From the NCBI GenBank assembly GCA_049290235.1, contig JBATNG010000017.1, positions 628 through 64,627 of the forward strand: a DNA stretch of 64,000 bases. Direction: 5' to 3'. Of this stretch, positions 10,439 through 28,362 are shown in pieces; positions within the stretch are counted from its first letter, which is position 1, and every line of letters starts with the position of its first letter. Below the pieces are notes generated by a model. That model searched no databases. It had not been told where the DNA came from and saw only the letters and a list, made by a program, of their open reading frames with translations. Origin of the DNA: Candidatus Moraniibacteriota bacterium (GTDB lineage Bacteria > Patescibacteriota > Minisyncoccia > Moranbacterales > UBA1568). A program made the translations under genes and the position numbers.

Positions 10439-12307
10439 ATGAGTACTACGACCGAAGACATCAAATCCCGCCTGAATATCGTCGACGTGGTCGGCCAGTA
10501 CGTGAAGCTGCAGAAGGCTGGGTCACACTGGAAGGCGAATTGCCCGTTCCATCAGGAGAAGACGCCCTCTTTCTCCGTGAACGAGGAGCGCAATATGTGG
10601 CACTGTTTCGGCTGTGGCAAGGGCGGGGATGTGTTCGCGTTTGTCATGGAGATCGAGGGGCTGGAATTCCGTGAGGCACTGAAGCTCCTCGCGGAGAAGG
10701 CGGGGGTCGAGCTGCCCGAATATCGTGGAGGTGGTGGGCAGAAGCCTGAAATGAAAGACCGAGGACTGGAAATATTGGAGCTTGCGACGAAATTCTATGA
10801 GAAACAGCTCTGGGAGAGCGAACGCGGCAAGGCGATACTCGCCTATCTCCATGAACGCGGACTGACCGACGAATCCATCCGCACCTATCGGCTGGGCTAT
10901 GCGCCGGATGGCTGGCGTTTCATTTTTGAATTTCTCCTGAAACGAGGGTATAGCGCAGACGAAATAGAACGTACTGGCCTGGTCATTCGTAAAACCAACA
11001 ACCAACAACCAACAATCAGCAACGCGGATCCCTCCCAACCCACAACCCACAACCCGCAACCTACAACCTCGGCCTACTACGATCGTTTTCGCGACCGCAT
11101 CATGTTTCCGATTGGAGACATCCTCGGCCGGCCGATCGGCTATTCGGCCCGCGTCGCCCCTGGTGGGGACGAAAGTCAAGCGAAATATATCAATACTCCA
11201 GAGACGAATTTGTACTACAAGAGTCGGGCGCTCTATGGCCTCGCCCTCGCCAAGCAGTCGATCAAAGAATCAGGCCGAGCGATCCTCGTTGAGGGCAATA
11301 TGGATGTCATCGCACTCCATCAGGCGGGGCTGGCCAATGTCGTCGCAGTGTCTGGGACGGCGCTGACCGTTGAGCAGCTCGGGATATTGAAGCGCTATGG
11401 AAAGAAACTCGCCCTGTTCTTCGATATGGACAAGGCGGGGCAGGCAGCAGCCTGGAAGAGTGCCATCCTCGCGTTTGGTCTGGACTTCGCGGTCGAAGCC
11501 GTCGCGCTCTCGAGTGGCAAGGACGCGGCTGATATGAACCGCGAAGACCCGGAGCAGTTGCGTGCCGCCGTAGCGGATGCCCAGCCGGCGATGCGGTACT
11601 TTCTCGATTCGCTCCTCCGGGATGCTGATGCCGGGAGTCAGGACGGCAAGAACCAAATCGTCGAACGCTATGCTGAGCTCTTGGCCGCGACTCAGAATGA
11701 GCTCGATCGATCGCACTGGACCAAGGAACTCGCGGCCGCCATCGGTGCTGAACCAAAGGTCGTCCAGGCAACGGTCGAAAAAGTCTTTCGCTCGCTGCAA
11801 CGCGGCGATCACTTCATCGAAAGCCGTCCGAGCGGGACCTTTCTCCCGAAGACTTTTGGCCGTCGATCGGAAGTCTTGCGTGAAGGGCTCATCGGTCTCA
11901 TGCTCGCCAGTCCGACGGCGCAAGAGGTCGTCGCGCTTGAGACAGACAGAGCTGTCTTGGACTTTCTCGCGCTCCACCCGATCGCTTTCTTCATTCGCAA
12001 TAATCCATCGGATCCGATCGCCGCGATCGAGGATCGAGCCCTTCAGAGTCTCGCGAGTGATATCTTGTTCCGGACACTCGAGCTCCCCAGTTTGCGCGCG
12101 GCCGAAGAGGAGAGAGAAACGGTCGCAGCGAATATCACAGGTGAATATCTGCGGGATCTGCGGTCCGAATTGCATGAAAAGGATGAACGTCTCGCCCTCG
12201 GGCGCGCGATTGAAGCCGCTCGACAGGCTGGTAACAAAGAGGAGGAACGCCGTCTCTTTGAGGAATTTGCTCGACTGACCAAGGGCGATGCTTCCCAGAA
12301 CGGGTGA
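10439..12307 (+). CDS. dnaG: DNA primase
   Basis: Zinc-binding motif CPFHQEKTPSFSVNEERNMWHCFGCGKGGDVFAFVM. TOPRIM region EGNMDVIALHQAGLANVVAVSGTAL...FDMDKAGQAAA. A low-complexity Q/P/T insert is encoded by a caacca-type repeat at about 10990-11080. Confidence 0.9.
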   Translation: MSTTTEDIKSRLNIVDVVGQYVKLQKAGSHWKANCPFHQEKTPSFSVNEERNMWHCFGCGKGGDVFAFVMEIEGLEFREALKLLAEKAGVELPEYRGGGGQKPEMKDRGLEILELATKFYEKQLWESERGKAILAYLHERGLTDESIRTYRLGYAPDGWRFIFEFLLKRGYSADEIERTGLVIRKTNNQQPTISNADPSQPTTHNPQPTTSAYYDRFRDRIMFPIGDILGRPIGYSARVAPGGDESQAKYINTPETNLYYKSRALYGLALAKQSIKESGRAILVEGNMDVIALHQAGLANVVAVSGTALTVEQLGILKRYGKKLALFFDMDKAGQAAAWKSAILAFGLDFAVEAVALSSGKDAADMNREDPEQLRAAVADAQPAMRYFLDSLLRDADAGSQDGKNQIVERYAELLAATQNELDRSHWTKELAAAIGAEPKVVQATVEKVFRSLQRGDHFIESRPSGTFLPKTFGRRSEVLREGLIGLMLASPTAQEVVALETDRAVLDFLALHPIAFFIRNNPSDPIAAIEDRALQSLASDILFRTLELPSLRAAEEERETVAANITGEYLRDLRSELHEKDERLALGRAIEAARQAGNKEEERRLFEEFARLTKGDASQNG

Positions 12308-12352
12308 AATTTGCTAGCCTGAGCCTACAAAACGGTAATCTCTTTGCTCACT

Positions 12353-13663
12353 ATGGCCAAAAAACCGCTGAAAAAGAAGAAGCCAACGCCGAAGAAACCG
12401 GCTTCCAAGAAGAAGTCAGCCAGGAAACCGGCTCCGAAAAAGCCGGCCAAAAAGCGACCGGTTGCCAAGAAGACGCTGCGGAAGGTGAAAAAATCAGCCC
12501 CGAAAAAGAAGCCCGTGGCCAAGAAGCAGTCGTTTCCGAAGAAGTCTGTAGCAGGGAAGAAACCCTCACGTGGGGAGTTGGCCCAAAACGCTTTTGATGA
12601 ACTGATCAGTCGGGGGAAGCAGCGCGGTTTCATCACCGAAGATGAGATCATCCATATCCTGCCGCATATCGAACAAGATCTCGACAGTCTCGAGAATCTC
12701 TATGAGCAGCTCGAAACGTCGGGTATCCGGGTAGTCGGTTCCGAGGAGATGCTGAAGGTCGGCGAGGAAAAGGAGGAAGTCGTCGAAAAGGGGAAGAAGA
12801 AAGACAAGATGATGGACCTCGGGGAGAGCGATGATGCTTCGGATCTGGTCCAGATGTATTTGAAAGAAATCGGTCGCGTGACGCTCCTCACCGGGGATGA
12901 AGAAGTGAAGCTCGCCAAGGCGATCGAAAAGGGTGATCTCGTGGCGAAACAACGTCTGACTGAGGCGAATCTCCGGCTCGTCGTCTCCATTGCCAAGAAG
13001 TATGTCGGTCGTTCCCATAATTTATCCCTGCTCGATCTCATCCAAGAGGGAAATATTGGTCTCTTCCGAGCGGTCGAGAAATTTGATTATCGCAAAGGTT
13101 TCAAGTTTTCGACCTATGCGACGTGGTGGATCCGTCAGGCGATCACGCGTGCTCTCGCTGATCAGTCTCGGACGATCCGCATCCCGGTGCACATGGTGGA
13201 GACGATCAACAAATACGCCCAGGTGACTCGGCGTCTCGTGCAGGAGCTCGGTCGGGAGCCGCTCGCCGAAGAGATCGCCGCTGAAATGAACCTGGAAGTC
13301 GACAAAATTCGCCATATCCAGAAGATTTCACAAGAAACTGTTTCGCTTGAGACGAGTGTCGGTGACAATGATGATGACTCGGTCCTCGGGGACTTCATCG
13401 AGGATACCGAGACCGTCATGCCACACCAGATGGCCGCCCGCAAGCTCTTGAAGTCACATATCGGAGCCATTCTCGATGAGCTCACGCCGCGCGAGCAGAA
13501 GATCCTTCGTATCCGGTTCGGTCTCGAAGATGGCGTGACGCATACGCTCGAGGAAGTCGGTCAGGAATTCGGTGTCACTCGCGAGCGTATCCGGCAGATC
13601 GAAGCCAAGGCGCTCGAAAAGATCCGTGAGCACGAGAGTCTGAAAAAGCTCCGGGATTACTAA
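12353..13663 (+). CDS. rpoD: RNA polymerase sigma-70 factor with lysine-rich basic N-terminal extension
   Basis: Region 2.x [40 protein letters not shown], region 3, and region 4 [38 protein letters not shown]. The N-terminal 75 aa are KKPxKK-type repeats. ATG at 12353; the ORF-track TTG at 12344 is unlikely. Confidence 0.9.
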
Positions 13664-14910: not shown

Positions 14911-14985
<75 letters not shown>

Positions 14986-15168: not shown

Positions 15169-16326
15169 ATGAATAATCTCAACCCGTATTCAGCTCTATT
15201 CGATGGCGGCAAGAAACGGATCAGATACAACGGAAATAGCGTATTCCAGCCCATTGAGGACGTCAAAGAATCCGATTTCAGCGAAGGGATCACGACAGGA
15301 AGGATCGCGAAGATTTTTCAGGATCCGGAATATTTTTATCACCTTCACAAGGTAGACAATGGGATATTCTTCGGAGCGGTGGAATACTTCCGATCGATCG
15401 ATGCCGAGTGGTGCAATCTTCCCCTCACGACACTCATGATTTCATCTCCGGGAGAAGTGTACGCCGGAAAAACGCTGGATTACACGACCGATACGCTCCC
15501 GGTTGATATATCCTGGTTTGACAATAAGCGGAACGTCTTTCTTTCGGAAAGTTCACAATTCTATCTCGAGCTGAGGCTCCTGACGCAGAATATCGGTAAG
15601 GTCTTTTCCATATATAATTCGTTCAGAAAAGAAAAGGCGGACTTTTGTCATCTTTCGGAGTTCCAGCACATCGAATTCGAGGGGAAGGTTTCTTTTGACC
15701 AGAATATTGATATCTTTCTCGGTTTGATGCGTCACATCACGAAGTATCTTATAGACAATGAGAGAGAAAGCCTGGAGTACTTCATCGGGGAGGAAAAGCT
15801 GAAGGAGCTTGCCGATGCCTTTTCAGAGGGAAATATCGTTACGATTACCTTCAAGGAGGCGCTTGAAGCTCTCCATAAGGAGACCGGGGATGATATGTAC
15901 AAGGAATTCAGCCTGAAAAACTTCGGTGCATGGGAAGAAATAAGACTTACGGAGATATTCGGCAAGCACGTCATTGTGACGAAATTCCCGCTTTTGCAGA
16001 TTCCTTTCTATCACAACGAACTTGAGGAGAATGAGGACGGGGTTCCGCTCGCCGAGAATGCCGATTTCATCCTCTGTGGTTATCGGGAAACCGTCGGAAG
16101 CGGAACGAGAATTTCAAATTCGGAAGCCTTAAAGGAGAAAGCGAAGACTTTCAATCTTCCTATGTCGGATTACGATCCGTATATTCAGACCCGTCTGAGG
16201 GAAGGGTATCAAAAGACTTCCGGTTTCGGTCTCGGATGGCAGCGGTATGTGCAATGGGTATTACAGTTGCCATATATATGGGAAGCGACACATATACCGC
16301 GAGGACATCATCTCCCTAAGCCGTAA
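15169..16326 (+). CDS. AsnA-type asparagine synthetase / class II aaRS-like catalytic core without an anticodon-binding domain
   Basis: Motif-2-like FRKEKADFCHLSEFQHIEFEG, motif-3-like GSGTRI...GFGLGWQRYVQWVLQLPYIWE. The C-terminus resembles AsnA ([22 protein letters not shown]). No N-terminal OB-fold. Confidence 0.6.
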   Translation: MNNLNPYSALFDGGKKRIRYNGNSVFQPIEDVKESDFSEGITTGRIAKIFQDPEYFYHLHKVDNGIFFGAVEYFRSIDAEWCNLPLTTLMISSPGEVYAGKTLDYTTDTLPVDISWFDNKRNVFLSESSQFYLELRLLTQNIGKVFSIYNSFRKEKADFCHLSEFQHIEFEGKVSFDQNIDIFLGLMRHITKYLIDNERESLEYFIGEEKLKELADAFSEGNIVTITFKEALEALHKETGDDMYKEFSLKNFGAWEEIRLTEIFGKHVIVTKFPLLQIPFYHNELEENEDGVPLAENADFILCGYRETVGSGTRISNSEALKEKAKTFNLPMSDYDPYIQTRLREGYQKTSGFGLGWQRYVQWVLQLPYIWEATHIPRGHHLPKP

Positions 16327-16339
16327 AATCAATAAATAT

Positions 16340-17182
16340 ATGGATCAGAAGACCTTCGATAATTTTTTTCAGCCATACGCAAAAAATGTCGACAAAGCCG
16401 ACGATGTGAGCGCCTTTTGGCGACTCTCTGATGCATTGATCATGGAGATTATCAAGGAAAGTATCGGAAAGCATTGTTCCGAGCAATCAGCTGTATGTGA
16501 TGCGGGGGGTGGGACTGGACGGTGGGTGGTGAAGATGAGCATAGAGATTCCCGGAAAATTCATGGTCTACGATCGCTCGGTCGATATGCTCGCAAAAGCG
16601 AAAGAAAATATTGAAAAAGCCGGCCTTTCCGATAAGGTAACGCTCGTTCAGGGAGACTTGACCGATATGAAGAGTATTGAAAGCGAGTCGATCGATCATA
16701 TCGTGAGTATTTACAGCCCGATAAGCTTCATTTCCGAGAACGGAAAGGCAGCTTCGGAAATGTATCGTGTTCTCAAAAAAGGAGGGAGAATTCTTCTTAT
16801 GGGACACAGTTACTATAATGCGCTTGCGTCGAAAGTGAACAATTATCGGGCCGATTCCGAAGAGCTCGCGCGGCTCTCGGAAGAATATCGGGTGAAGTGG
16901 GCACCATATGTCCCTGAGCTGGTGACTTTTTCGAAGGAGAGTATGGAGTCTCTCTTGAAAACGGCTGGCTTCCGAATTGAGAAAACATACGGCGTTCCGG
17001 TGTTCGTTCAGCCCGGTCCGGAAGATTTTGATCCGGAGAACGAGAAGGTGAGCGCGGTGTCAACCTATCTGGAGAATCCGGACGTATTCAAGCAGATATT
17101 CGATTTGGAAATGGAACACAACAGCAGGGATACAGTTGCCAATCGGGGGATGAACATATTCACTCTAGCCACAAAGATATGA
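16340..17182 (+). CDS. class I SAM-dependent methyltransferase
   Basis: Motif I VCDAGGGTGRW, motif post-I VYDRSVDML, LVQGDLTDM. ATG at 16340 lies just after the upstream stop at 16324-16326. Confidence 0.7.
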   Translation: MDQKTFDNFFQPYAKNVDKADDVSAFWRLSDALIMEIIKESIGKHCSEQSAVCDAGGGTGRWVVKMSIEIPGKFMVYDRSVDMLAKAKENIEKAGLSDKVTLVQGDLTDMKSIESESIDHIVSIYSPISFISENGKAASEMYRVLKKGGRILLMGHSYYNALASKVNNYRADSEELARLSEEYRVKWAPYVPELVTFSKESMESLLKTAGFRIEKTYGVPVFVQPGPEDFDPENEKVSAVSTYLENPDVFKQIFDLEMEHNSRDTVANRGMNIFTLATKI

Positions 17183-18204
17183 AAGAGCTTATAAACCCGA
17201 AGCAACTTCAGAAGGGAGACCTCATTTCTATCGTTTCTCCATCCGCCGGACTAGGAGAACTTTTCCCTCATCGGGTAAAAGATGGTATTCGGGCTTTGGA
17301 AAGGATGAGTTTTTGTGTCAAGGTGGAGAAAAACGCGCTTGGTCGGAAGGGGTGGGTGTCCGGAACGGTTGAAGAGCGAATCGAGGATTTGCATTCAGCT
17401 TTTTCCAATCCCGAAGTGAAATGTGTCATGGCATCTATCGGCGGCGATCATAGCAACCAGCTTCTCAAGCATATCGATTACGATCTCATACGGAACAATC
17501 CGAAGATATTTATCGGTTACTCCGATATTTCCGTGCTTCATTACGCACTGCAGTCCAAGGCTGGACTCCGAACATTTTATGGACCGTGTCTCATATCGGA
17601 ATTCGGGGAATATCCGGATGTTCTTGATTATACGAAAGACTCGTTCATGAAAACTCTCGTCGATGGGTCGTTTGGAGAGATTCGCGCATCGGAAGAATGG
17701 ACTGATGATTTTTTGGACTGGTTCAATCAAGAGAACCACACAAAGAAAAGGACGCTGTATCCATCGGGCGGTTATGAATGGTGGAAAGAAGGCCGCGCGG
17801 AGGGGCGGATTCTCGGGGGATGCGTTCCATCGATCAATCACACATTGGGGACCGAGTATTGGATTGACCCTCGAGGAGCTTTGTTTTTCATTGATATCCC
17901 GGAAGGGGGGCCGGGAGAACCGATGGACATGGCCGCACTGGATTCGTTTTTTGCTGATTTGGATAACGCGAAGACGTTTGAGAATATCTCCGGTCTTATT
18001 ATCGGCAGACCGTACAGGTTTTCGGAAGAATTGCACTCCGAACTGAAGGGACTCGTCTTGAAATATGCCGGTTCATATGGTTATCCTATCCTCTATAATG
18101 CAAATATAGGGCACTGCGCGCCGAGTATCACGCTTCCGTTCGGAGCGCTTGCAGAGGCCGACTCTTCGCGGAATCTTTTTCGGATTGCTGAATCGTGGGT
18201 TTGA
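17179..18204 (+). CDS. LD-carboxypeptidase, peptidase family S66 (LdcA / microcin C7 immunity MccF family)
   Basis: Resembles S66 (LdcA/MccF) family; no specific catalytic motif could be pinned down by eye. Confidence 0.65.
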   Translation: MKELINPKQLQKGDLISIVSPSAGLGELFPHRVKDGIRALERMSFCVKVEKNALGRKGWVSGTVEERIEDLHSAFSNPEVKCVMASIGGDHSNQLLKHIDYDLIRNNPKIFIGYSDISVLHYALQSKAGLRTFYGPCLISEFGEYPDVLDYTKDSFMKTLVDGSFGEIRASEEWTDDFLDWFNQENHTKKRTLYPSGGYEWWKEGRAEGRILGGCVPSINHTLGTEYWIDPRGALFFIDIPEGGPGEPMDMAALDSFFADLDNAKTFENISGLIIGRPYRFSEELHSELKGLVLKYAGSYGYPILYNANIGHCAPSITLPFGALAEADSSRNLFRIAESWV

Positions 18205-18230
18205 TAACGTGGAATAGTGTAAAAAAATTA

Positions 18231-18266
18231 CCCGCCGTCAGATACTCGTGACGGCGGGCGTTTTTT
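18231..18266. terminator. bidirectional rho-independent terminator between convergent genes
   Basis: cccgccgtca-gatactcg-tgacggcggg flanked by aaaaaaa (18221-18227) and tttttt (18261-18266). Confidence 0.65.
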
Positions 18267-19515
18267 ATGCGAAAGGAAACGGAATGACATCGCGAACATT
18301 CTGTTTTCCTCGAGGGAGAAGGAGCATTGCGAGACGTGTCACACCGAGACCAAACCCGGAAATCGGCGGTATGCCGATTCTAAGAAGGTCCAGATACCCA
18401 GTATTTATGGGGACTTCAGATTCTTCGTGCTGCTCTTGAAGTCGCTGTCGCATAGCGCCCTCATCGTTCTCGTCTACCGACATAGTAGCGATATGCATCC
18501 CTTTAGCGACAAGTACGGCTTGGTTTGCGCGATCGTCCATGACCCTACAGAATGGATTGAATCCAGTCGGCATATCCATTATGAAGGTTGGATTGTCGAA
18601 CCGCGGGGCTATGATTTTCGTGAGCGCCTTGTATATGCTGGTGAATCCAGGCATATCTTTTGAGAAGAGATCTGGGCGCAGGCTGATCAATTCCTCGATT
18701 GAACAGCATTCTCGGCCGAAGGCCGAGGCGAGTGCCTCATTGAAGGTGGTTCGTTTCGGGGAGGCAGAAAACGCGTCACCCAATGGTTCGACTCCGACAC
18801 TACTCCTACTCGCCGCGGCGAGTTCATTGAGGATTTCGGTAATGACGTCCAGTGAGTCGTCGAGCGAGTCGCTGACCCTGTACGCTTCCAGGATGCCGAA
18901 CTCAGGATAGTGCGTTGCGTTGATGCCTTCGTTTCGGAACGAGTGAGTCATTTCATACACCCGTTCAAACCCTCCGGCAATGAGCTTTTTGAGTTTTATC
19001 TCCGATGTCATCGAGAGATGGTACTCACGGCCGTTTGCATTGCATTTTGTCGAGAAGGAATTCGCGAGACCGGCATCGAAACTATCCTGCAGGACCCCGG
19101 TATCGAATTCAAGATATCCGTTGTTCTGAAGAACTGTCCGGACGCGTCGATTCATATCGGCGATGACTTTGAAGAGGCCGAAAGAATCCTGGTTTCCAAT
19201 GAGACCGATGACGCGATTATCGTATTCCGTCCGACTGTTCACTCCGTTGTATTTGTCGGGCAGCTCGATGCGGCATATCGACACGATCTTGGCAGAATAT
19301 ACGGCTATAGACGGTGTCCCTGTGCCGCTTGTCGTACGTGTGCCTTCGATGGATATGATCGATCCCGCAGGGAGATTGGCGATTTCCCTGTAGTTTCCAA
19401 TTATTTTCTTTGTGAGAATGAACTGGGTATCCTGCTCCTGAAAGCGAACTTTTAGAAAACAGATGCCACCCATATTTCGTTTTGCGAGGATTCTCGCGTA
19501 TCCGGTGACGTCCAT
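18265..19515 (-). CDS. class IIb aminoacyl-tRNA synthetase paralogue, LysRS-like (compact, 416 aa)
   Basis: N-terminal OB-fold (GYARILAKRNMGGICFLKVRFQ...FILTK), motif 2 FRNEGINATHYPEFGILEAY, motif 3 GFGLGVTRLAMLLL. Confidence 0.7.
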   Translation of the reverse strand: MDVTGYARILAKRNMGGICFLKVRFQEQDTQFILTKKIIGNYREIANLPAGSIISIEGTRTTSGTGTPSIAVYSAKIVSICRIELPDKYNGVNSRTEYDNRVIGLIGNQDSFGLFKVIADMNRRVRTVLQNNGYLEFDTGVLQDSFDAGLANSFSTKCNANGREYHLSMTSEIKLKKLIAGGFERVYEMTHSFRNEGINATHYPEFGILEAYRVSDSLDDSLDVITEILNELAAASRSSVGVEPLGDAFSASPKRTTFNEALASAFGRECCSIEELISLRPDLFSKDMPGFTSIYKALTKIIAPRFDNPTFIMDMPTGFNPFCRVMDDRANQAVLVAKGMHIATMSVDENDEGAMRQRLQEQHEESEVPINTGYLDLLRIGIPPISGFGLGVTRLAMLLLPRGKQNVRDVIPFPFA

Positions 19516-19659
19516 GATGAAATTCTCCTCGGTTGGTTGTTAAAGTTCAACGAGGAAGTATATGTTTAAAATGATCCTTTGTCAACGGCATCTCATTGAC
19601 ACGAGGTTCTGTTTCTGATACGGATTAGATAGGTAGAAATTCTGTCCGAGGAGGATGAG

Positions 19660-20562
19660 ATGAAAATTATTCGGCAAAGTTCTTTTACATATCCGATTGG
19701 CCTAAGAGAGAAATGGCGAGACGAAGTCTTCCAGCCATTAGTTGATCACAAGTTCAGGTTGTTGCTTTCCGACGGGAATACCATCGAAGCGGGAGTATTT
19801 GAGCTTTTGGTGGACGAAACGAAAGAAATCCACGCATGCATTTCAACGCAGGCGGGATGTAAATTCGGGTGTGCCATGTGCACCTCCGGCAGGGAGGGCT
19901 TTTCAAGGAACCTCACAAAGGGAGAAATTCTTTGCCAGATACGACTCCTTTCTGGCGCGGCAGGAATCAGAATGTTCGACCATATCGTTTTTATGGGCAT
20001 AGGTGAGCCGCTTGATAATTACGACAACTTTGTCGGAAGCGTTACGGATTTGGTGAATAGCGATGCTTCTTATGCTGGTCGGCTTTCATTCGCGACCGTC
20101 GGGCTCCCTCAGAAGCTACTCCGATTGTCACGGGAACCGATCCCAGCATTCCGAATGCTTTGGATATCGCTCCATGCGCCAACGGATGAAAAGCGCGCAC
20201 AGATCATGCCGGTTGATAAAGCGTTCAGCATTCTTGAAATACTCGGAGCCGCAAAAGAATTCGCCAACCGTGTATCAACGGAAGTATGGATTAACTACAT
20301 GCTTTTCCAAGGATTCAACGACGGTGTCGATGATGCGAAATCGTTCGCGGGTCTCCTGACTGGAACGGAGAGTACTTTCTCCGTGATGATTACTGAGCCC
20401 AATAACGATCTTGCGCAGTATCGGGGAGCTGATGTTTCGGACTTGAAAAGGTTTGAGGGCTATCTCCGATCTGCAGGAGTAAAAAATCGGATCGCTCGAT
20501 TTATTGCGGCGGGGAAACAAGTGAACGCCGGTTGTGGAGAATTCGTCTTCACCCGCATGTAG
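19660..20562 (+). CDS. RlmN/Cfr-family radical SAM methyltransferase homologue, N-terminally truncated relative to RlmN/Cfr
   Basis: CxxxCxxC cluster ACISTQAGCKFGCAMCTSG. MGIGEPLDN. The C-terminal conserved Cys sits in GCGEF. Colinear with Cfr/RlmN from the radical-SAM core to the C-terminus. Confidence 0.7.
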   Translation: MKIIRQSSFTYPIGLREKWRDEVFQPLVDHKFRLLLSDGNTIEAGVFELLVDETKEIHACISTQAGCKFGCAMCTSGREGFSRNLTKGEILCQIRLLSGAAGIRMFDHIVFMGIGEPLDNYDNFVGSVTDLVNSDASYAGRLSFATVGLPQKLLRLSREPIPAFRMLWISLHAPTDEKRAQIMPVDKAFSILEILGAAKEFANRVSTEVWINYMLFQGFNDGVDDAKSFAGLLTGTESTFSVMITEPNNDLAQYRGADVSDLKRFEGYLRSAGVKNRIARFIAAGKQVNAGCGEFVFTRM

Positions 20563-20686: not shown

Positions 20687-20714
20687 GGTGGTTCGAATCC
20701 TGCCGCCGGAGCAA
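20687..20714 (+). repeat. partial tRNA-Asn 3' end (T-arm plus acceptor 3' strand); att-like direct repeat
   Basis: ggtggttcgaatcctgccgccggagcaa versus the tRNA 3' end aggttcgaatcctgtcgccggagcca. Followed by a hairpin caaaaacaa..ttgtttttg plus T-run (20716-20760). Confidence 0.6.
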
Positions 20715-20761: not shown

Positions 20762-20810
20762 GGCAGGAGTCGAAGTTTATGCCCTTTAGAGTAAATCCTG
20801 CCGCCAGAGC
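20762..20810 (+). repeat. second partial tRNA-Asn 3' fragment carrying a roughly 30-nt insertion in the T-loop position; homologous to the fragment at 24741-24836
   Basis: ggcagga-gtcgaagtttatgccctttagagtaa-atcctgcc-gccagagc. Shares aagtttatgccctttagRgtaaatcctgYcgccRgagc and the downstream caagccttgtt with the 24.8-kb copy. Confidence 0.55.
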
Positions 20811-20873
20811 TAAGAAAACAATGCCTAATCAAGCCTTGTTTTTTGTTACCCTCGAGAGGATTTGAACTGGCCC

Positions 20874-21003: not shown

Positions 21004-21588
21004 ATGAAAAAAGACTATCTTTTAGACCTCATGCGATCCAAGAAGACGGTTTTTACGTTTAAGGACCTGGTTTTGCTTTGGGGAGAGTCTGATGTGAGTT
21101 TTGTGAAGAAGAAGATTCATCGCTATGTGAAGGCCGGTAAAATGAACGCTGTACGCAGGGGTATTTATTCTAAGGACAAGAATTATGATAAATATGAGCT
21201 GGCTACAAAAGTATATACTCCCTCATATGTCAGCATGGAAACAGCTTTAGGTGCCGCCGGAATTACGTTCCAGTTGTACGGTCAGATTTTTGTTGCTTCC
21301 TATACCACCAAAGAAATTGAGTGCGACGGACAGAGGTATTCTTATAAAAAAATAAAGGGTACCATTCTCACTAATCAGGTTGGCATAGAATCAAGAGAAA
21401 ATTATAGTATTGCTTCGCCTGAGAGAGCATTTTTGGATGTCATTTACCTCAACCAGGACTATCATTTTGACAACCTCTCGGCTTTACATTGGGAAAAGGT
21501 ATATGACATTTTACCTATATATGACGGTAATAAACGTATGGCCAGAATGGTGAAAATGTACTATGAAGCATGTAAGAAAGACTTTTAA
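21004..21588 (+). CDS. AbiEi-family type IV toxin-antitoxin antitoxin / transcriptional regulator
   Basis: Size and position immediately upstream of the AbiEii-like nucleotidyltransferase. N-terminal wHTH-like region FTFKDLVLLWGESDVSFVKKKIHRYVKAGKMNAVRRGIY. Confidence 0.5.
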   Translation: MKKDYLLDLMRSKKTVFTFKDLVLLWGESDVSFVKKKIHRYVKAGKMNAVRRGIYSKDKNYDKYELATKVYTPSYVSMETALGAAGITFQLYGQIFVASYTTKEIECDGQRYSYKKIKGTILTNQVGIESRENYSIASPERAFLDVIYLNQDYHFDNLSALHWEKVYDILPIYDGNKRMARMVKMYYEACKKDF

Positions 21589-21599
21589 AAAAATATCAT

Positions 21600-22310
21600 A
21601 TGGCTCTGGATACCGCAAAGCATAAAAATATCCTGGTAAAAATCCTGAAGGATATTTACACTGACGTCACTATCAGTCCAGCGCTGGGATTCAAAGGCGG
21701 AACAGCGGCTACTTTTTTCTATGGACTTGATCGCTTCTCGGTGGATTTGGATTTTGATTTGCTTGATGCAGAAAAGGAAATTCTTGTGTTTGAGCGAGTC
21801 AAAGTCATACTGGAGAAGTATGGCACTCTCAAAGAAGCGCGGACAAAAAGATTCAATCTTCTCTACGTGCTCTCATATAATGACAAGGACATCAATGCTC
21901 AAAACGTGAAAGTGGAAATAAATCGTCGGGAGTATGGCTCGCGATATACGGTGGAGTCATTCCTGGGTATTTCTATGCAGGTCATGGTCAAAGAAGATAT
22001 GGTGGCGCATAAGCTCTGTGCTATGCTCGAACGCATCGGTAAAACCAATCGTGATATTTTTGATGTGCAGTTTTTTCTTGCTCACGACTGGCCGGTTAAT
22101 AGGAAAATTATCGAGGATCGTATGGGCGTTTCGTATGCAGATTTTTTGAAAAAGTGTATCGATGCGATGGAAAAGTTCAATGACAACAACATTCTTTCCG
22201 GTATGGGCGAGTTACTCACCGAAAAACAGAAAGCCTGGGCCAAGGCCAAGTTGAAGCCAGAAGCATTGTTTTTACTCAGGTTGGCTTTGGAGAAGGAGAC
22301 GTATCCATAA
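21600..22310 (+). CDS. AbiEii/AbiGii-family nucleotidyltransferase toxin (DUF1814-like)
   Basis: NTase motif GFKGGTAATFFYGLDRFSVDLDFDL (hG[GS] ... DhDh). Confidence 0.6.
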   Translation: MALDTAKHKNILVKILKDIYTDVTISPALGFKGGTAATFFYGLDRFSVDLDFDLLDAEKEILVFERVKVILEKYGTLKEARTKRFNLLYVLSYNDKDINAQNVKVEINRREYGSRYTVESFLGISMQVMVKEDMVAHKLCAMLERIGKTNRDIFDVQFFLAHDWPVNRKIIEDRMGVSYADFLKKCIDAMEKFNDNNILSGMGELLTEKQKAWAKAKLKPEALFLLRLALEKETYP

Positions 22311-22517: not shown

Positions 22518-24671
22518 ATGTCCGTGCTTACTCGACAACAGCGAGTGGATTTATTTCAATCTTTTTTTCGCGGGAGAGAAGATGTTTTTGCTATCCGCTT
22601 CCAAAAAGTAGGGACAGATATCTCCGGATATACGCCGGTATTTACCGATCGAGGAAAAACAGAATACAAAACAATCACACAGAGCGACATCGAGAACCAT
22701 CTGCTTGGTAACGTGACACTCGGTATCTATCCGCTACTAAAAGCTAATACGTCATATTTCATTGCTGCAGATTTTGATGAGAAAGAGTGGAAACGAGATG
22801 CAAAAGCCTTTTATGATACCTGTAGGAAGCACGGAATAGATGTTGCTTTGGAAGTTTCCCGATCTGGAAATGGGGCTCACATATGGTGTTTTTTCGATAG
22901 GCCCTATCCTGCTTCGAGGTCGAGAAGAATTTTTCTTACCTTGCTTCGTCAAGCGAAGTGTATTGATGATTACTTTCATGATGAGAGTTTTGATCGTTTA
23001 TTCCCGAACCAGGATATGCATTCAGGGAAGGGTCTGGGTAATCTCATCGCATTACCGCTGCAAGGGAAGTCAAGAAAAGAAAATAAAACTGAATTCATTG
23101 ATCCGAAAACATTCCTTCCATTTCCTGACCAGTGGGATTTTTTGTCTGGTCTCAAAAAGATTTCTGTAGAAAAACTGGATGAGTTGTATGAAAATCTCTG
23201 TCAAAAAGGGAATACTTTGAAAGAGCAGGCGACTTTTAGTCAAAATACCCCGATGTGTATCGAGCTTTCAGCTCTGCTGAAGATTCCGAAGCAGCAGGTT
23301 ACACCGGTGCTCATGACGTATTTACGGGAAAAGTTGAATTTTTTCAATAGCGAATATATAGCCAAGTCGAAAATCGGATTTTCGACGCATGGGGTGGAGA
23401 AGTTTTTTAAGACGGTATGCTCCGACGATGATTTTGTATATATTCCTCGCGGATACCTTGAAATGGTAACGGTCTTTCTTCGGGAGCAGGGTATCGACTT
23501 TGAGGTTGTAGACAAATATTTGGTTTTAGAGGATGTTGAGCTGGATATTTCACTTCCTTTGTATCGATATCAGCAAGAAGCAGTAGAGAGTTTCGTGGGA
23601 AAAAACCAGGGGATGCTGATCGCTCCGCCCGGGAGCGGGAAGACTCTTATGGGACTTGCTATCGCTCTTTCCAAAAAGCAGCCGACGCTCATTATTGTAC
23701 ACCGGAAGAATATCCTCGAGCAGTGGGTCGAGAGCATCCATAACTTTCTCGGGATTCAAAAAAAGGAAATCGGAAAATACGGAGGCACAACCAAGAAAAT
23801 CAAACAACCGTTCACAGTTGCCATGATGCAGACACTTGCGAGAGCAAAAGAAAAGGATGAAATACTGAAGCATTTCGGCTGTGTGATAGTGGATGAATGC
23901 CATCATGTGCCAGCCAAGATGTTCCGGAAAGTGATCTCGTGTGTTTCGTCGAAATACCTTTTCGGACTGACGGCGACGCCGAAGCGGAAATACAACGATC
24001 AGAAATTAATTTCTGCTTACCTAGGTGAGACCATCTATGAAGTTTCCGGTGCTTATCGAGAGGAAAGCAGTGCTCTGGTGAATCCGGGCTCAGCGAATAT
24101 TTCCGTTGTTGTTCTGAAAAGTGATTTTCTCATTCCTTATGAATTCGGCGCAAGGGATTTTGCACATATTTTGAAGCTCACCTCTTTCGATACGCGGAGA
24201 AATAAAATGATTGCCGACGTCATACAAAGCGAAGTTTCACAAAAAAGGAAAGTATTGGTGATAGCGGAAAGAAAATAGCACATCGAGTCGCTTCGGTATT
24301 TCTTGAAGAAGAGTGTGGATATACTGGTCATGACCGGGACTCTCTCGGCTCGACAGAAAAAGTATCGGAGCACCAGAATGGGCAATGGGACGTTTCAGGT
24401 CATACTTGCGACAGGGCAGTTCTTTGGAGAAGGGGTGGATGTGGTACATTTCGACTCGCTTTTTATTGTCTCGCCGATTTCTTTCGAAGGAAAGCTGATC
24501 CAGTACATCGGTCGGTTACAGCGAGGCAGCAGAGAGAAGAAAGTGTTCGACATCTGTGATCCCGAGGTGAAAATGCTTGAAAAGATGTTCAAGAAGAGAG
24601 TGACGGTGTATAACAAATTAGCGAAAGCTGGTCAGATAACTTTTACAGAGCAAGCGAAGGACTTGTTATGA
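22518..24671 (+). pseudogene. Prim-Pol (archaeo-eukaryotic primase-like) N-terminal domain fused to SF2 DEAD/DEAH-type helicase; reading frame interrupted by a single in-frame TAG at 24276-24278
   Basis: PrimPol-like LGIYPLLKANTSYFIAADFDEKEW...LEVSRSGNGAHIWCFF. Helicase motif I APPGSGKT, II DECHH, III LTATP. After the TAG, in the same frame: VLVATGQFFGEGVDVVHFDSLFIV..QYIGRLQRGS (motifs V-VI). The ORF track shows this as 22518-24278 and 24303-24671, both in frame 0. Confidence 0.6.
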
Positions 24672-24740
24672 GTTTTTTACAATATAGGTCCGGACTTCTT
24701 CCAACGCTCGGAGCAGAGAGTTGGTGTGGGGTATATGCCG

Positions 24741-24836
24741 CAGGTGACTGTTTATCACTTGGTCACAGGTTTACATCCAAAGGATGAAAAGTTTATGCCC
24801 TTTAGGGTAAATCCTGTCGCCGGAGCATAGAGAACG
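24741..24836 (+). repeat. third partial tRNA-Asn copy (anticodon arm to 3' end) with a roughly 36-nt insertion in the T-loop
   Basis: caggtgactgtttatcacttggtcacagg-tttacatccaaaggatgaaaagtttatgccctttagggtaaat-cctgtcgccggagca. Compare the tRNA 14937-14985. Confidence 0.6.
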
Positions 24837-24942
24837 AGGCTGTAGCAAGCCTTGTTCTCTTTATCACTTCTATTGGAGTTCGAAGCTGGTATACTTGAAT
24901 TTACAGAAAAGGTTATTACTAATTTTCTATTGTTTCTGTATG

Positions 24943-25405: not shown

Positions 25406-25455
25406 ATCACCGTTCTGACGGCCCTCTCAGGCGGGCAGGCCTTCACGATGCGGAG
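25406..25455 (+). promoter_or_regulatory. conserved 50-nt non-coding leader element, copy a (upstream of the RibD_C gene)
   Basis: atcaccgttctRacgKcYctctcaggcgggcaggcYttcaYgatgcgRag is shared with 28113-28162 at about 88 percent identity. Confidence 0.4.
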
Positions 25456-26204: not shown

Positions 26205-26549
26205 ATGAAAAAATTCTTGGTTTTGTATCTCGTGCCCGTGGCGACTCTTGAGGCGTGGATGAAGACTGATCCTGAAACACGGCAGGCAGAGGAGGGCAAG
26301 ATGAAAGAGGAGTGGAGTGTGTGGATGAAGGAACATGGGGCAGCCATGAAGGAAACATGGGGAGCGGGGAAAACAAAGCTAGTAACCAAAGGAGGCACGA
26401 GCGATATCAAAAACGACGTTATGCTGTTCTCAATTGTGGAAGCGGAGTCAGCGGAAGCGGCAGCGAAACCTTTTGAGAGTCATCCACATCTCGGGATCCC
26501 AGAGGCGTCGATTGAGATCATGCCCATGAATGATCTCTCAGGCATGTGA
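26205..26549 (+). CDS. hypothetical protein
   Basis: ORF with plausible start; no recognised motif. Confidence 0.35.
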   Translation: MKKFLVLYLVPVATLEAWMKTDPETRQAEEGKMKEEWSVWMKEHGAAMKETWGAGKTKLVTKGGTSDIKNDVMLFSIVEAESAEAAAKPFESHPHLGIPEASIEIMPMNDLSGM

Positions 26550-26618: not shown

Positions 26619-26957
26619 ATGAACATCTCAAGGACAAGATTCGTTATCAGCTTCCTTATCGCTGCCTTTGCCTTCTTGTTTATCTCGAACGCGCTTTTTG
26701 GGACGGAGGCTCGACTCTTTCCTCAGCCGCCCGAGTCTTTCTTGGGCACGGATTCACCCATCGTTTGGAAGAGTATTGGGTATAAAACTCTCTTGCCGAT
26801 CAAAATTGTTTTGATCGGACCCATGCTTCCCTTTATCAATTTTTTGCGCCAAGAGCCGGATACGCCACCACCATTTTTTGTCATCGGGTTTGCGATCTAC
26901 TGGTCAATCCTTGCCCTATTCCTTCATTACCTTCTCGGTAAGAAGAAACACGCTTAA
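26619..26957 (+). CDS. small hypothetical membrane protein
   Basis: Three predicted hydrophobic helices. Confidence 0.35.
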   Translation: MNISRTRFVISFLIAAFAFLFISNALFGTEARLFPQPPESFLGTDSPIVWKSIGYKTLLPIKIVLIGPMLPFINFLRQEPDTPPPFFVIGFAIYWSILALFLHYLLGKKKHA

Positions 26958-26996: not shown

Positions 26997-27473
26997 GTGA
27001 AATCTATGAAGAACAGTGAAGCAGCATTTCGCTGGATTATCGAAATATTCAAACGCCACGGACTACCTTTTGTTGTCCTCGGGGGCTTGGCGGCCCGAGC
27101 CTATGGTTCGACCCGCGAGCTGAACGATATTGATCTCGTCATTCACAGAGACAATTTCGAACGCATCCTTCCCGAGGTACGGGAGTATATCACTTTCGGG
27201 CCAGAAATGAGCCAGGATGAAGAAGCGGAAGGGTATTCTATGGTTCTTCAATACAAGGAGCAAGACATCGATATTGGAGCCGAGGAAGATTGCAAGATTT
27301 TCAACCAAGCAACTGGCCAGTGGGAACTCTTGGAAACGGACTTCAATAATGTAGACCTGAAAGAAGTCTTCGGGATCACGGTTCCTGTTATGAAGAAAGA
27401 AGCCATCATTACTGAAAAACTCAAGTTCAACCGGCCAGTGGATCACGAGGATATCAAACAAATGCAGAGTTAG
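26997..27473 (+). CDS. small nucleotidyltransferase, Lnu(A)/LinA-like
   Basis: FVVLGGLAARAYGSTRELNDIDLVIHRD compares with the Lnu(A) motif LDGGWGVDVL..REHRDIDIDFD. Size 158 aa. Confidence 0.5.
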   Translation: MKSMKNSEAAFRWIIEIFKRHGLPFVVLGGLAARAYGSTRELNDIDLVIHRDNFERILPEVREYITFGPEMSQDEEAEGYSMVLQYKEQDIDIGAEEDCKIFNQATGQWELLETDFNNVDLKEVFGITVPVMKKEAIITEKLKFNRPVDHEDIKQMQS

Positions 27474-28112: not shown

Positions 28113-28162
28113 ATCACCGTTCTAACGTCTCTCTCAGGCGGGCAGGCTTTCATGATGCGAAG
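28113..28162 (+). promoter_or_regulatory. conserved 50-nt non-coding leader element, copy b (upstream of msrAB)
   Basis: See 25406-25455. Confidence 0.4.
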
Positions 28163-28362
28163 CAACTATCACTGAAGCTTAGTGGGAGACTCTCCACGTG
28201 TTGTCCGGCGAGTTTTCTATTGAGTGAAGACTATCCCTTTTCCTTTAACAGTACCCTTGATTGGAGTTCGGACCTGGTATACTACCCAAACAGGAGAGCG
28301 GAACGGAGGGAGAGGAAGGGCATATCGGCCGTAGGATAAACAGCACATGAAAACGACAGGCT

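Follow-up and report, generated by a model that had tools for sequence, protein, structure and literature searches.

Structure of the interrupted gene

The DNA analysed here, which we refer to as the window, is a 64,000-nucleotide stretch of a contig from a Candidatus Moraniibacteriota bacterium. On its forward strand, an open reading frame at 22518-24278, encoding 586 amino acids, closes with a TAG codon at 24276-24278. The same frame remains open past this codon (24279-24671), ending at a TGA at 24669-24671, and conceptual readthrough yields one protein of 717 residues. That two reading frames share a single frame here and are parted by this TAG, as the original prediction held, was confirmed on the sequence. 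The N-terminal 586 codons (22518-24275) encode an AEP domain, an XPB-type N-terminal (DRD-like) domain, RecA1 and the first strand of RecA2, and the last 130 codons with the TGA (24279-24671) encode the rest of RecA2, including helicase motifs V and VI. In an alignment of homologues the TAG stands in place of a conserved acidic codon within the motif ERK[E/D]H. Intact orthologues share 78-81% identity with the 130 codons that follow the stop, so the open frame there did not arise by chance. The feature is real, i.e., it is a premature in-frame TAG inside a single Prim-Pol/helicase gene.

Pfam matches and the motifs bore out the further claim that the gene is a fusion of a Prim-Pol with an SF2 helicase, and that it is otherwise intact. 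A CAPP-like AEP domain (nt 22542-23183, aa 9-222) matched AEP-TOTE (PF22548) with an E value of 1e-73 and 248 bits against a cut-off of 27, the match covering positions 2-229 of the 230 in the profile. Further matches were obtained to ResIII/DEAD (aa 347-490) and to Helicase_C (aa 564-669), the latter bridging the stop. Motif I (DxD; AADFDE, 22764-22781), motif II (SxxGxGxH; SRSGNGAHIW, 22857-22886) and motif III (hD; SFDRLFPNQD, 22986-23015) of the AEP domain fall in invariant columns of the alignment. Helicase motifs I-VI are also all encoded on the forward strand, with the Walker A sequence at 23622-23645, DECH at 23889-23906, TATP at 23967-23981, the motif IV region containing the stop (VLVIAERK*H) at 24252-24281, motif V at 24405-24443 and motif VI at 24501-24527. 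The TAG parts motifs I-IV from motifs V and VI; it lies where the motif IV strand ends, so that its predicted position between motifs IV and V was correct. In an AlphaFold model of an orthologue (P0002; mean pLDDT 86.5), residue 591 corresponds to the stop site. Because this residue begins the helix after strand 1 of RecA2 in the model, the truncated product would be expected to lack most of the second lobe of the motor.

Relation to known families

By sequence, the Prim-Pol domain matched the crystal structures of CAPP (7nqd/7nqf) with an E value of 1e-16, and by fold the Prim-Pol of the P0002 model matched CAPP with a TM score of about 0.8 and 27-28% identity. From residue ~250 to the C-terminus, the best matches in both sequence and fold were archaeal XPB/Rad25 and T4 UvsW, the match taking in the N-terminal DRD-like domain and both RecA lobes, and motifs I-VI are all encoded in the window gene. 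Unlike these proteins, however, it is fused to a Prim-Pol and its RecA2 is broken by the stop, and it is not an XPB orthologue, scoring 106 bits with the NCBIfam model against a cut-off of 610. Replicases of the pRN1 ORF904 type likewise join an AEP Prim-Pol to a helicase on a mobile element. Their helicase belongs to SF3 and they replicate an autonomous plasmid, whereas the window gene has an SF2 helicase that resembles XPB.

Away from CRISPR loci, CAPP homologues most often consist of a Prim-Pol with a helicase behind it, and these proteins typically belong to mobile elements (Zabrady et al. 2021, PMC8211822). The window gene has the same N-terminal AEP Prim-Pol and helicase as these non-CRISPR CAPP_A-type proteins, although the window copy bears a premature stop. 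The family is one already described, i.e., the non-CRISPR CAPP-like Prim-Pol-helicases of mobile elements. With the NCBIfam model for CAPP type A1 (NF040561) the score was 107.9 bits against a cut-off of 200, and no cas genes or CRISPR array were found near the gene when the neighbouring families were scanned.

The end-to-end match of the Prim-Pol domain to PF22548 is also a likeness to AEP-TOTE, and one family member (P0092) carries the NCBI name [quoted passage not shown]. TOTE stands for TPR, OB, TBP, Effector (Aravind, Iyer and Burroughs 2022, as cited in PMC12458937). Reading frames from 12 to 34 kb gave no Pfam match to a TPR-cold-shock/OB or TBP-domain protein, and TPR-OB/TBP proteins were not among the most frequent families of the 272 neighbour proteins at 74-78 related loci. 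Since only the effector component is present, we have not filed the gene as a TOTE system.

Homologues and the ancestral codon

The family is very widespread: a protein search returned at least 7800 relatives, counted as protein clusters. Among species-representative genomes, a relative is encoded in at least 590 stretches, from candidate-phyla-radiation bacteria, Bacteroidota and others. Among the matches listed, nearly all relatives are single polypeptides of ~700-725 amino acids. The sole 100% match among them is the 586-residue truncated product, found in the Candidatus Moraniibacteriota metagenome-assembled genome (MAG) at NCBI and in a Logan assembly; intact relatives reach no more than 76% identity.

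When 117 homologues were aligned, the column occupied by the TAG had Glu in 93 of them and Asp in the other 24, and it is surrounded by near-invariant Arg, Lys and His. The original prediction had named Gln, Tyr and Trp as residues that might be conserved at this site, but the column is strictly Glu/Asp. The ancestral state of the stop is an acidic codon: the nearest orthologues (73-76% identity) have GAG (L002/L003), GAG (L005) or GAA (L004) at the stop site, and from GAG one G-to-T transversion is enough to create the TAG. All 117 homologues run on for at least 100 residues past the column. We also fetched 80 loci from species-representative genomes; 78 were not cut by the end of a contig, and in 77 of these a single reading frame spanned the whole match. 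A natural two-gene arrangement, with orthologues ending at this point and a separate gene downstream, had been put forward as the finding that would overturn the prediction; it was ruled out by the continuity of the homologues and loci.

Because dS was saturated against the nearest relatives, the state of the part downstream of the stop was assessed from dN and from mismatches at conserved columns. The post-stop dN to orthologues was 0.125-0.130, compared with 0.166-0.167 between intact orthologues of comparable divergence. At 31 highly conserved columns after the stop, the window sequence had two mismatches and intact orthologues had from one to four. Apart from the stop the gene is intact; with dS saturated, its undecayed 3' part shows the mutation to be recent only relative to a long branch.

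Disrupted copies were also seen in relatives. In P0017 the gene has suffered a deletion, and the P0018 copy, of low coverage, is fragmented. Only one further interrupted copy turned up among the 78 genome loci. This copy (L027, from the Bacteroidetes MAG LacPavin_0920_WC90_MAG_44_13) carries an independent in-frame TAG (L027:7891-7893; CAG to TAG), which replaces the Gln that is conserved in FQ[VI]L, within RecA2 and just before helicase motif V. As judged from these sequences, disruptions scattered over different places are what sporadic loss would leave, and not what would be seen at a conserved recoding site.

Genomic context

The gene had been predicted to lie beside an AbiEi/AbiEii pair within an island, and both parts of this claim held. 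GC content drops from ~0.55 to 0.41-0.47 between ~15 and 29 kb, starting right after an intact tRNA-Asn(GTT) at 14911-14985, which forms the left edge of the low-GC island and is its likely integration target. A copy of the 3' end of this tRNA (20690-20712; 96% identical to 14961-14983) looks like an att-type scar closing the first segment of the island. Next is the left member of a pair of imperfect 68-nt direct repeats (20773-20840), which includes a degenerate stretch resembling the 3' end of tRNA-Asn. It is followed by genes for an AbiEi-family antitoxin/transcriptional regulator (21004-21588; PADLOC AbiEi, E 2.6e-59) and, after a gap of 11 nt, an AbiEii nucleotidyltransferase toxin (21600-22310; Pfam PF08843; PADLOC, E 3.1e-77). 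Beyond the Prim-Pol/helicase gene lie a degenerate tRNA-Asn anticodon arm with the 5' half of a T arm (24740-24778; 90% identical to 14933-14971), which was not recognised as a tRNA, and then the right 68-nt repeat (24789-24856), in which 24804-24826 is a tRNA-Asn 3' end at 78% identity. All of these features are on the forward strand. The two 68-nt repeats, which are 82% identical, bound exactly the AbiEi, AbiEii and Prim-Pol/helicase genes, which make up a 4-kb cassette. No integrase or recombinase was found within 15-30 kb, and no plasmid rep genes within the cassette. The arrangement looks like the product of stacked or serial insertions at one tRNA-Asn with no integrase left, and the cassette has the look of a remnant, or of a unit that is mobilised in trans.

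Two other pairs of direct repeats occur further to the right. One (25406-25455 versus 28113-28162, 88% identity) runs from the start of a RibD_C gene to just upstream of msrAB, and the other (24872-24895 versus 28260-28283, 92% identity) from upstream of a glyoxalase gene to just upstream of msrAB; they may be scars of an insertion between 24.9 and 28.3 kb. The first segment of the island (15169-20562) holds five genes, i.e., an AsnRS-like catalytic-domain paralogue (385 aa), a SAM methyltransferase, an S66 LD-carboxypeptidase (of the family that contains MccF), a LysRS-like paralogue (416 aa, minus strand) and an RlmN/Cfr-like radical-SAM enzyme (300 aa). All five score below the NCBIfam equivalog cut-offs, and together they may represent a resistance or self-immunity cluster directed against translation-targeting antibiotics.

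Interpretation of the stop codon

The original prediction offered three explanations for the stop: a recent nonsense mutation, an assembly or sequencing error, or programmed readthrough. We consider the first to be probably correct, i.e., that an accessory gene of a known type has recently acquired an ordinary nonsense mutation, and the change from GAG to TAG in an acidic column supports it. An artefact of sequencing or assembly, or a minority allele, would mean that the organism really has GAG at this position and an intact gene for the 717-residue protein. The source is a metagenome-assembled contig, the sole defect is a single-base substitution with everything else intact, and G-to-T changes belong to a known class of oxidative-damage artefact. 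However, substitution errors rarely survive into a consensus, and an independently built contig, assembled by Logan from SRR28060978, matches the window at 100% identity along 7761 nt (7.8 kb), TAG included. This agreement makes an assembler artefact unlikely, although the two assemblies may come from one run. Nor was an intact allele of >90% identity present among the matches listed from the search of 5.8 billion protein clusters, and no second interrupted conserved gene was seen within the window. Taken with the Logan contig, these results make an error of this kind improbable. Three reading frames that share one frame (26205-26549, 26619-26957 and 26997-27473) were considered as a second broken gene, but several stops intervene and the three are distinct genes.

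Programmed readthrough or suppression of the amber codon, giving a short Prim-Pol/RecA1 isoform together with a full-length one, would predict the full conservation of the 130 downstream codons. In E. coli, termination is comparatively weak when the base after the stop (+4) is C, as it is here, and L027 provides a second family member with an in-frame TAG in RecA2. Yet the L027 codon lies at a different residue, and the C at +4 is simply inherited from the ancestral GAG-CAY. TAG occurs in none of the 117 homologues at this column, which is strictly acidic; readthrough that inserts Gln, Tyr, Trp or Lys would not bring back such a residue, and Glu is not usually inserted when a stop is read through. 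TAG is also a normal terminator in the window, where it ends at least four conserved genes (those for a cyclophilin, a T2SSE ATPase, a beta-lactamase-family protein and DsbD_2) at the ends of their Pfam profiles; on the strength of these genes, genome-wide reassignment of TAG was rejected. Where other pairs of long reading frames in the window are parted by an in-frame TAG, they are distinct genes (cyclophilin/BipA, and an unknown gene/AcrB-family gene). The original prediction had looked to other in-frame TAGs in conserved genes and to a suppressor tRNA(CUA) as signs of recoding; our survey, which covered the window, found neither, the sole tRNA there being tRNA-Asn and an Rfam scan returning nothing besides it. 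The RNA 3' of the stop showed no stimulatory structure, with a minimum free energy z of -0.09 versus shuffles. We therefore regard readthrough as very unlikely. Unlikelier still is a regulated switch, in which low readthrough, or a suppressor encoded elsewhere in the genome, would give a little full-length enzyme together with a motor-less Prim-Pol isoform. If this were true, a potentially toxic conflict enzyme would be kept throttled, and the independent TAG in RecA2 of L027 (Bacteroidota) would hint at a recurrent strategy. It is also unlikely that the split is tolerated or functional, with the 586-residue Prim-Pol working without its motor, or a re-initiated C-terminal piece reassembling with it. 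RecA1 and every catalytic motif of the Prim-Pol are intact, start codons occur soon after the stop (TTG at 24303, ATG at 24378), and CAPP Prim-Pol domains are active alone in vitro (PMC8211822). Against this, the break falls within RecA2 rather than between domains, none of the homologues has a natural split at this point, and neither 24303 nor 24378 is preceded by an evident Shine-Dalgarno-like sequence.

If the stop is an ordinary nonsense mutation, as we favour, the intact ancestor would have been a CAPP-like archaeo-eukaryotic Prim-Pol fused to an XPB/Rad25-like SF2 translocase in one polypeptide of the usual family length. A single G-to-T transversion would have converted to TAG the conserved Glu codon (GAG) of ERKEH, at the turn between strand 1 of RecA2 and the helix that follows. 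Translation would now halt after 586 residues, so that the Prim-Pol and RecA1 would be kept and motifs V and VI would be missing. Without these two motifs the truncated product should lose ATP-driven translocation, and the truncation probably abolishes function. Because nothing downstream has decayed, the mutation would be recent or still polymorphic. In the intact enzyme, we envisage that the XPB-like motor would open or track along DNA and that the Prim-Pol would make primers or DNA on the exposed strand, activities that could serve either defence against invading DNA or the establishment of the enzyme's own mobile element. The gene would be accessory cargo, of a commonly lost kind, within an AbiEi/AbiEii cassette stacked at a tRNA-Asn. 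On its own the finding matters little, being a textbook case of a nonsense mutation by one base change, in an accessory gene that belongs to a mobile or defence cassette from an uncultured bacterium. Its use is a practical one: annotations should describe the locus as a disrupted CAPP-like Prim-Pol/XPB-like helicase, and neither as two genes nor as evidence of recoding.

Neighborhoods and carriers of related genes

Full-length relatives are carried on 97 large plasmids, of 78-985 kb, which have replicon typing of their own. With these plasmids having their own replicons, it is unlikely that the gene is the sole replicase of a small plasmid. A phage origin was rejected: there were no full-length relatives in 50,697 phage records, in which only the helicase half found matches.

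The recurrent placing of the gene beside varied toxin-antitoxin modules may be worth a separate study. An AbiEii gene lies within two genes of the relative in 13 of 74-78 genome loci, and other recurrent neighbours at these loci are Fic, RhuM, SLFN-AlbA_2/HATPase_c_4, MazE, HipA and integrases. At single loci, VapBC-like, MNT/HepT, Fic, HigBA and RES-Xre pairs are found directly upstream. As a raw tally, made without a background rate, the gene is very often directly downstream of a variable toxin-antitoxin-like module, across phyla and on plasmids (loci L004, L006-L009, L011, L092, L093 and L012-L091). The module types are AbiE, VapBC-like RHH+PIN, MNT/HepT, Fic, HigBA, RES-Xre, ParDE, MazE and HipA.

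In the 73%-identical orthologue L002 (ENA ERZ2903520 NODE_234), the gene adjoins dnaG and rpoD, and AbiEi/AbiEii genes are found four genes upstream. In the window a sigma-70 factor identified by Pfam (12344-13663), together with the reading frame at 10439-12307, sits 9-12 kb upstream of the gene. With dnaG and rpoD beside the one gene and a sigma-70 factor upstream of the other, the same chromosomal neighborhood may be a variable hotspot in related organisms.

Many Bacteroidota members of the family are longer, at ~1000 amino acids, and have an extra C-terminal region of ~280 residues (L031, L038, L044, L047, L086 and ~28 other loci). In L029, L036, L074 and L082, a gene of ~440 amino acids is found immediately downstream. 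Neither the extra region nor this downstream gene gave a frequent Pfam match, so that the family possesses a further module, which is absent from the candidate-phyla-radiation-type version in the window.
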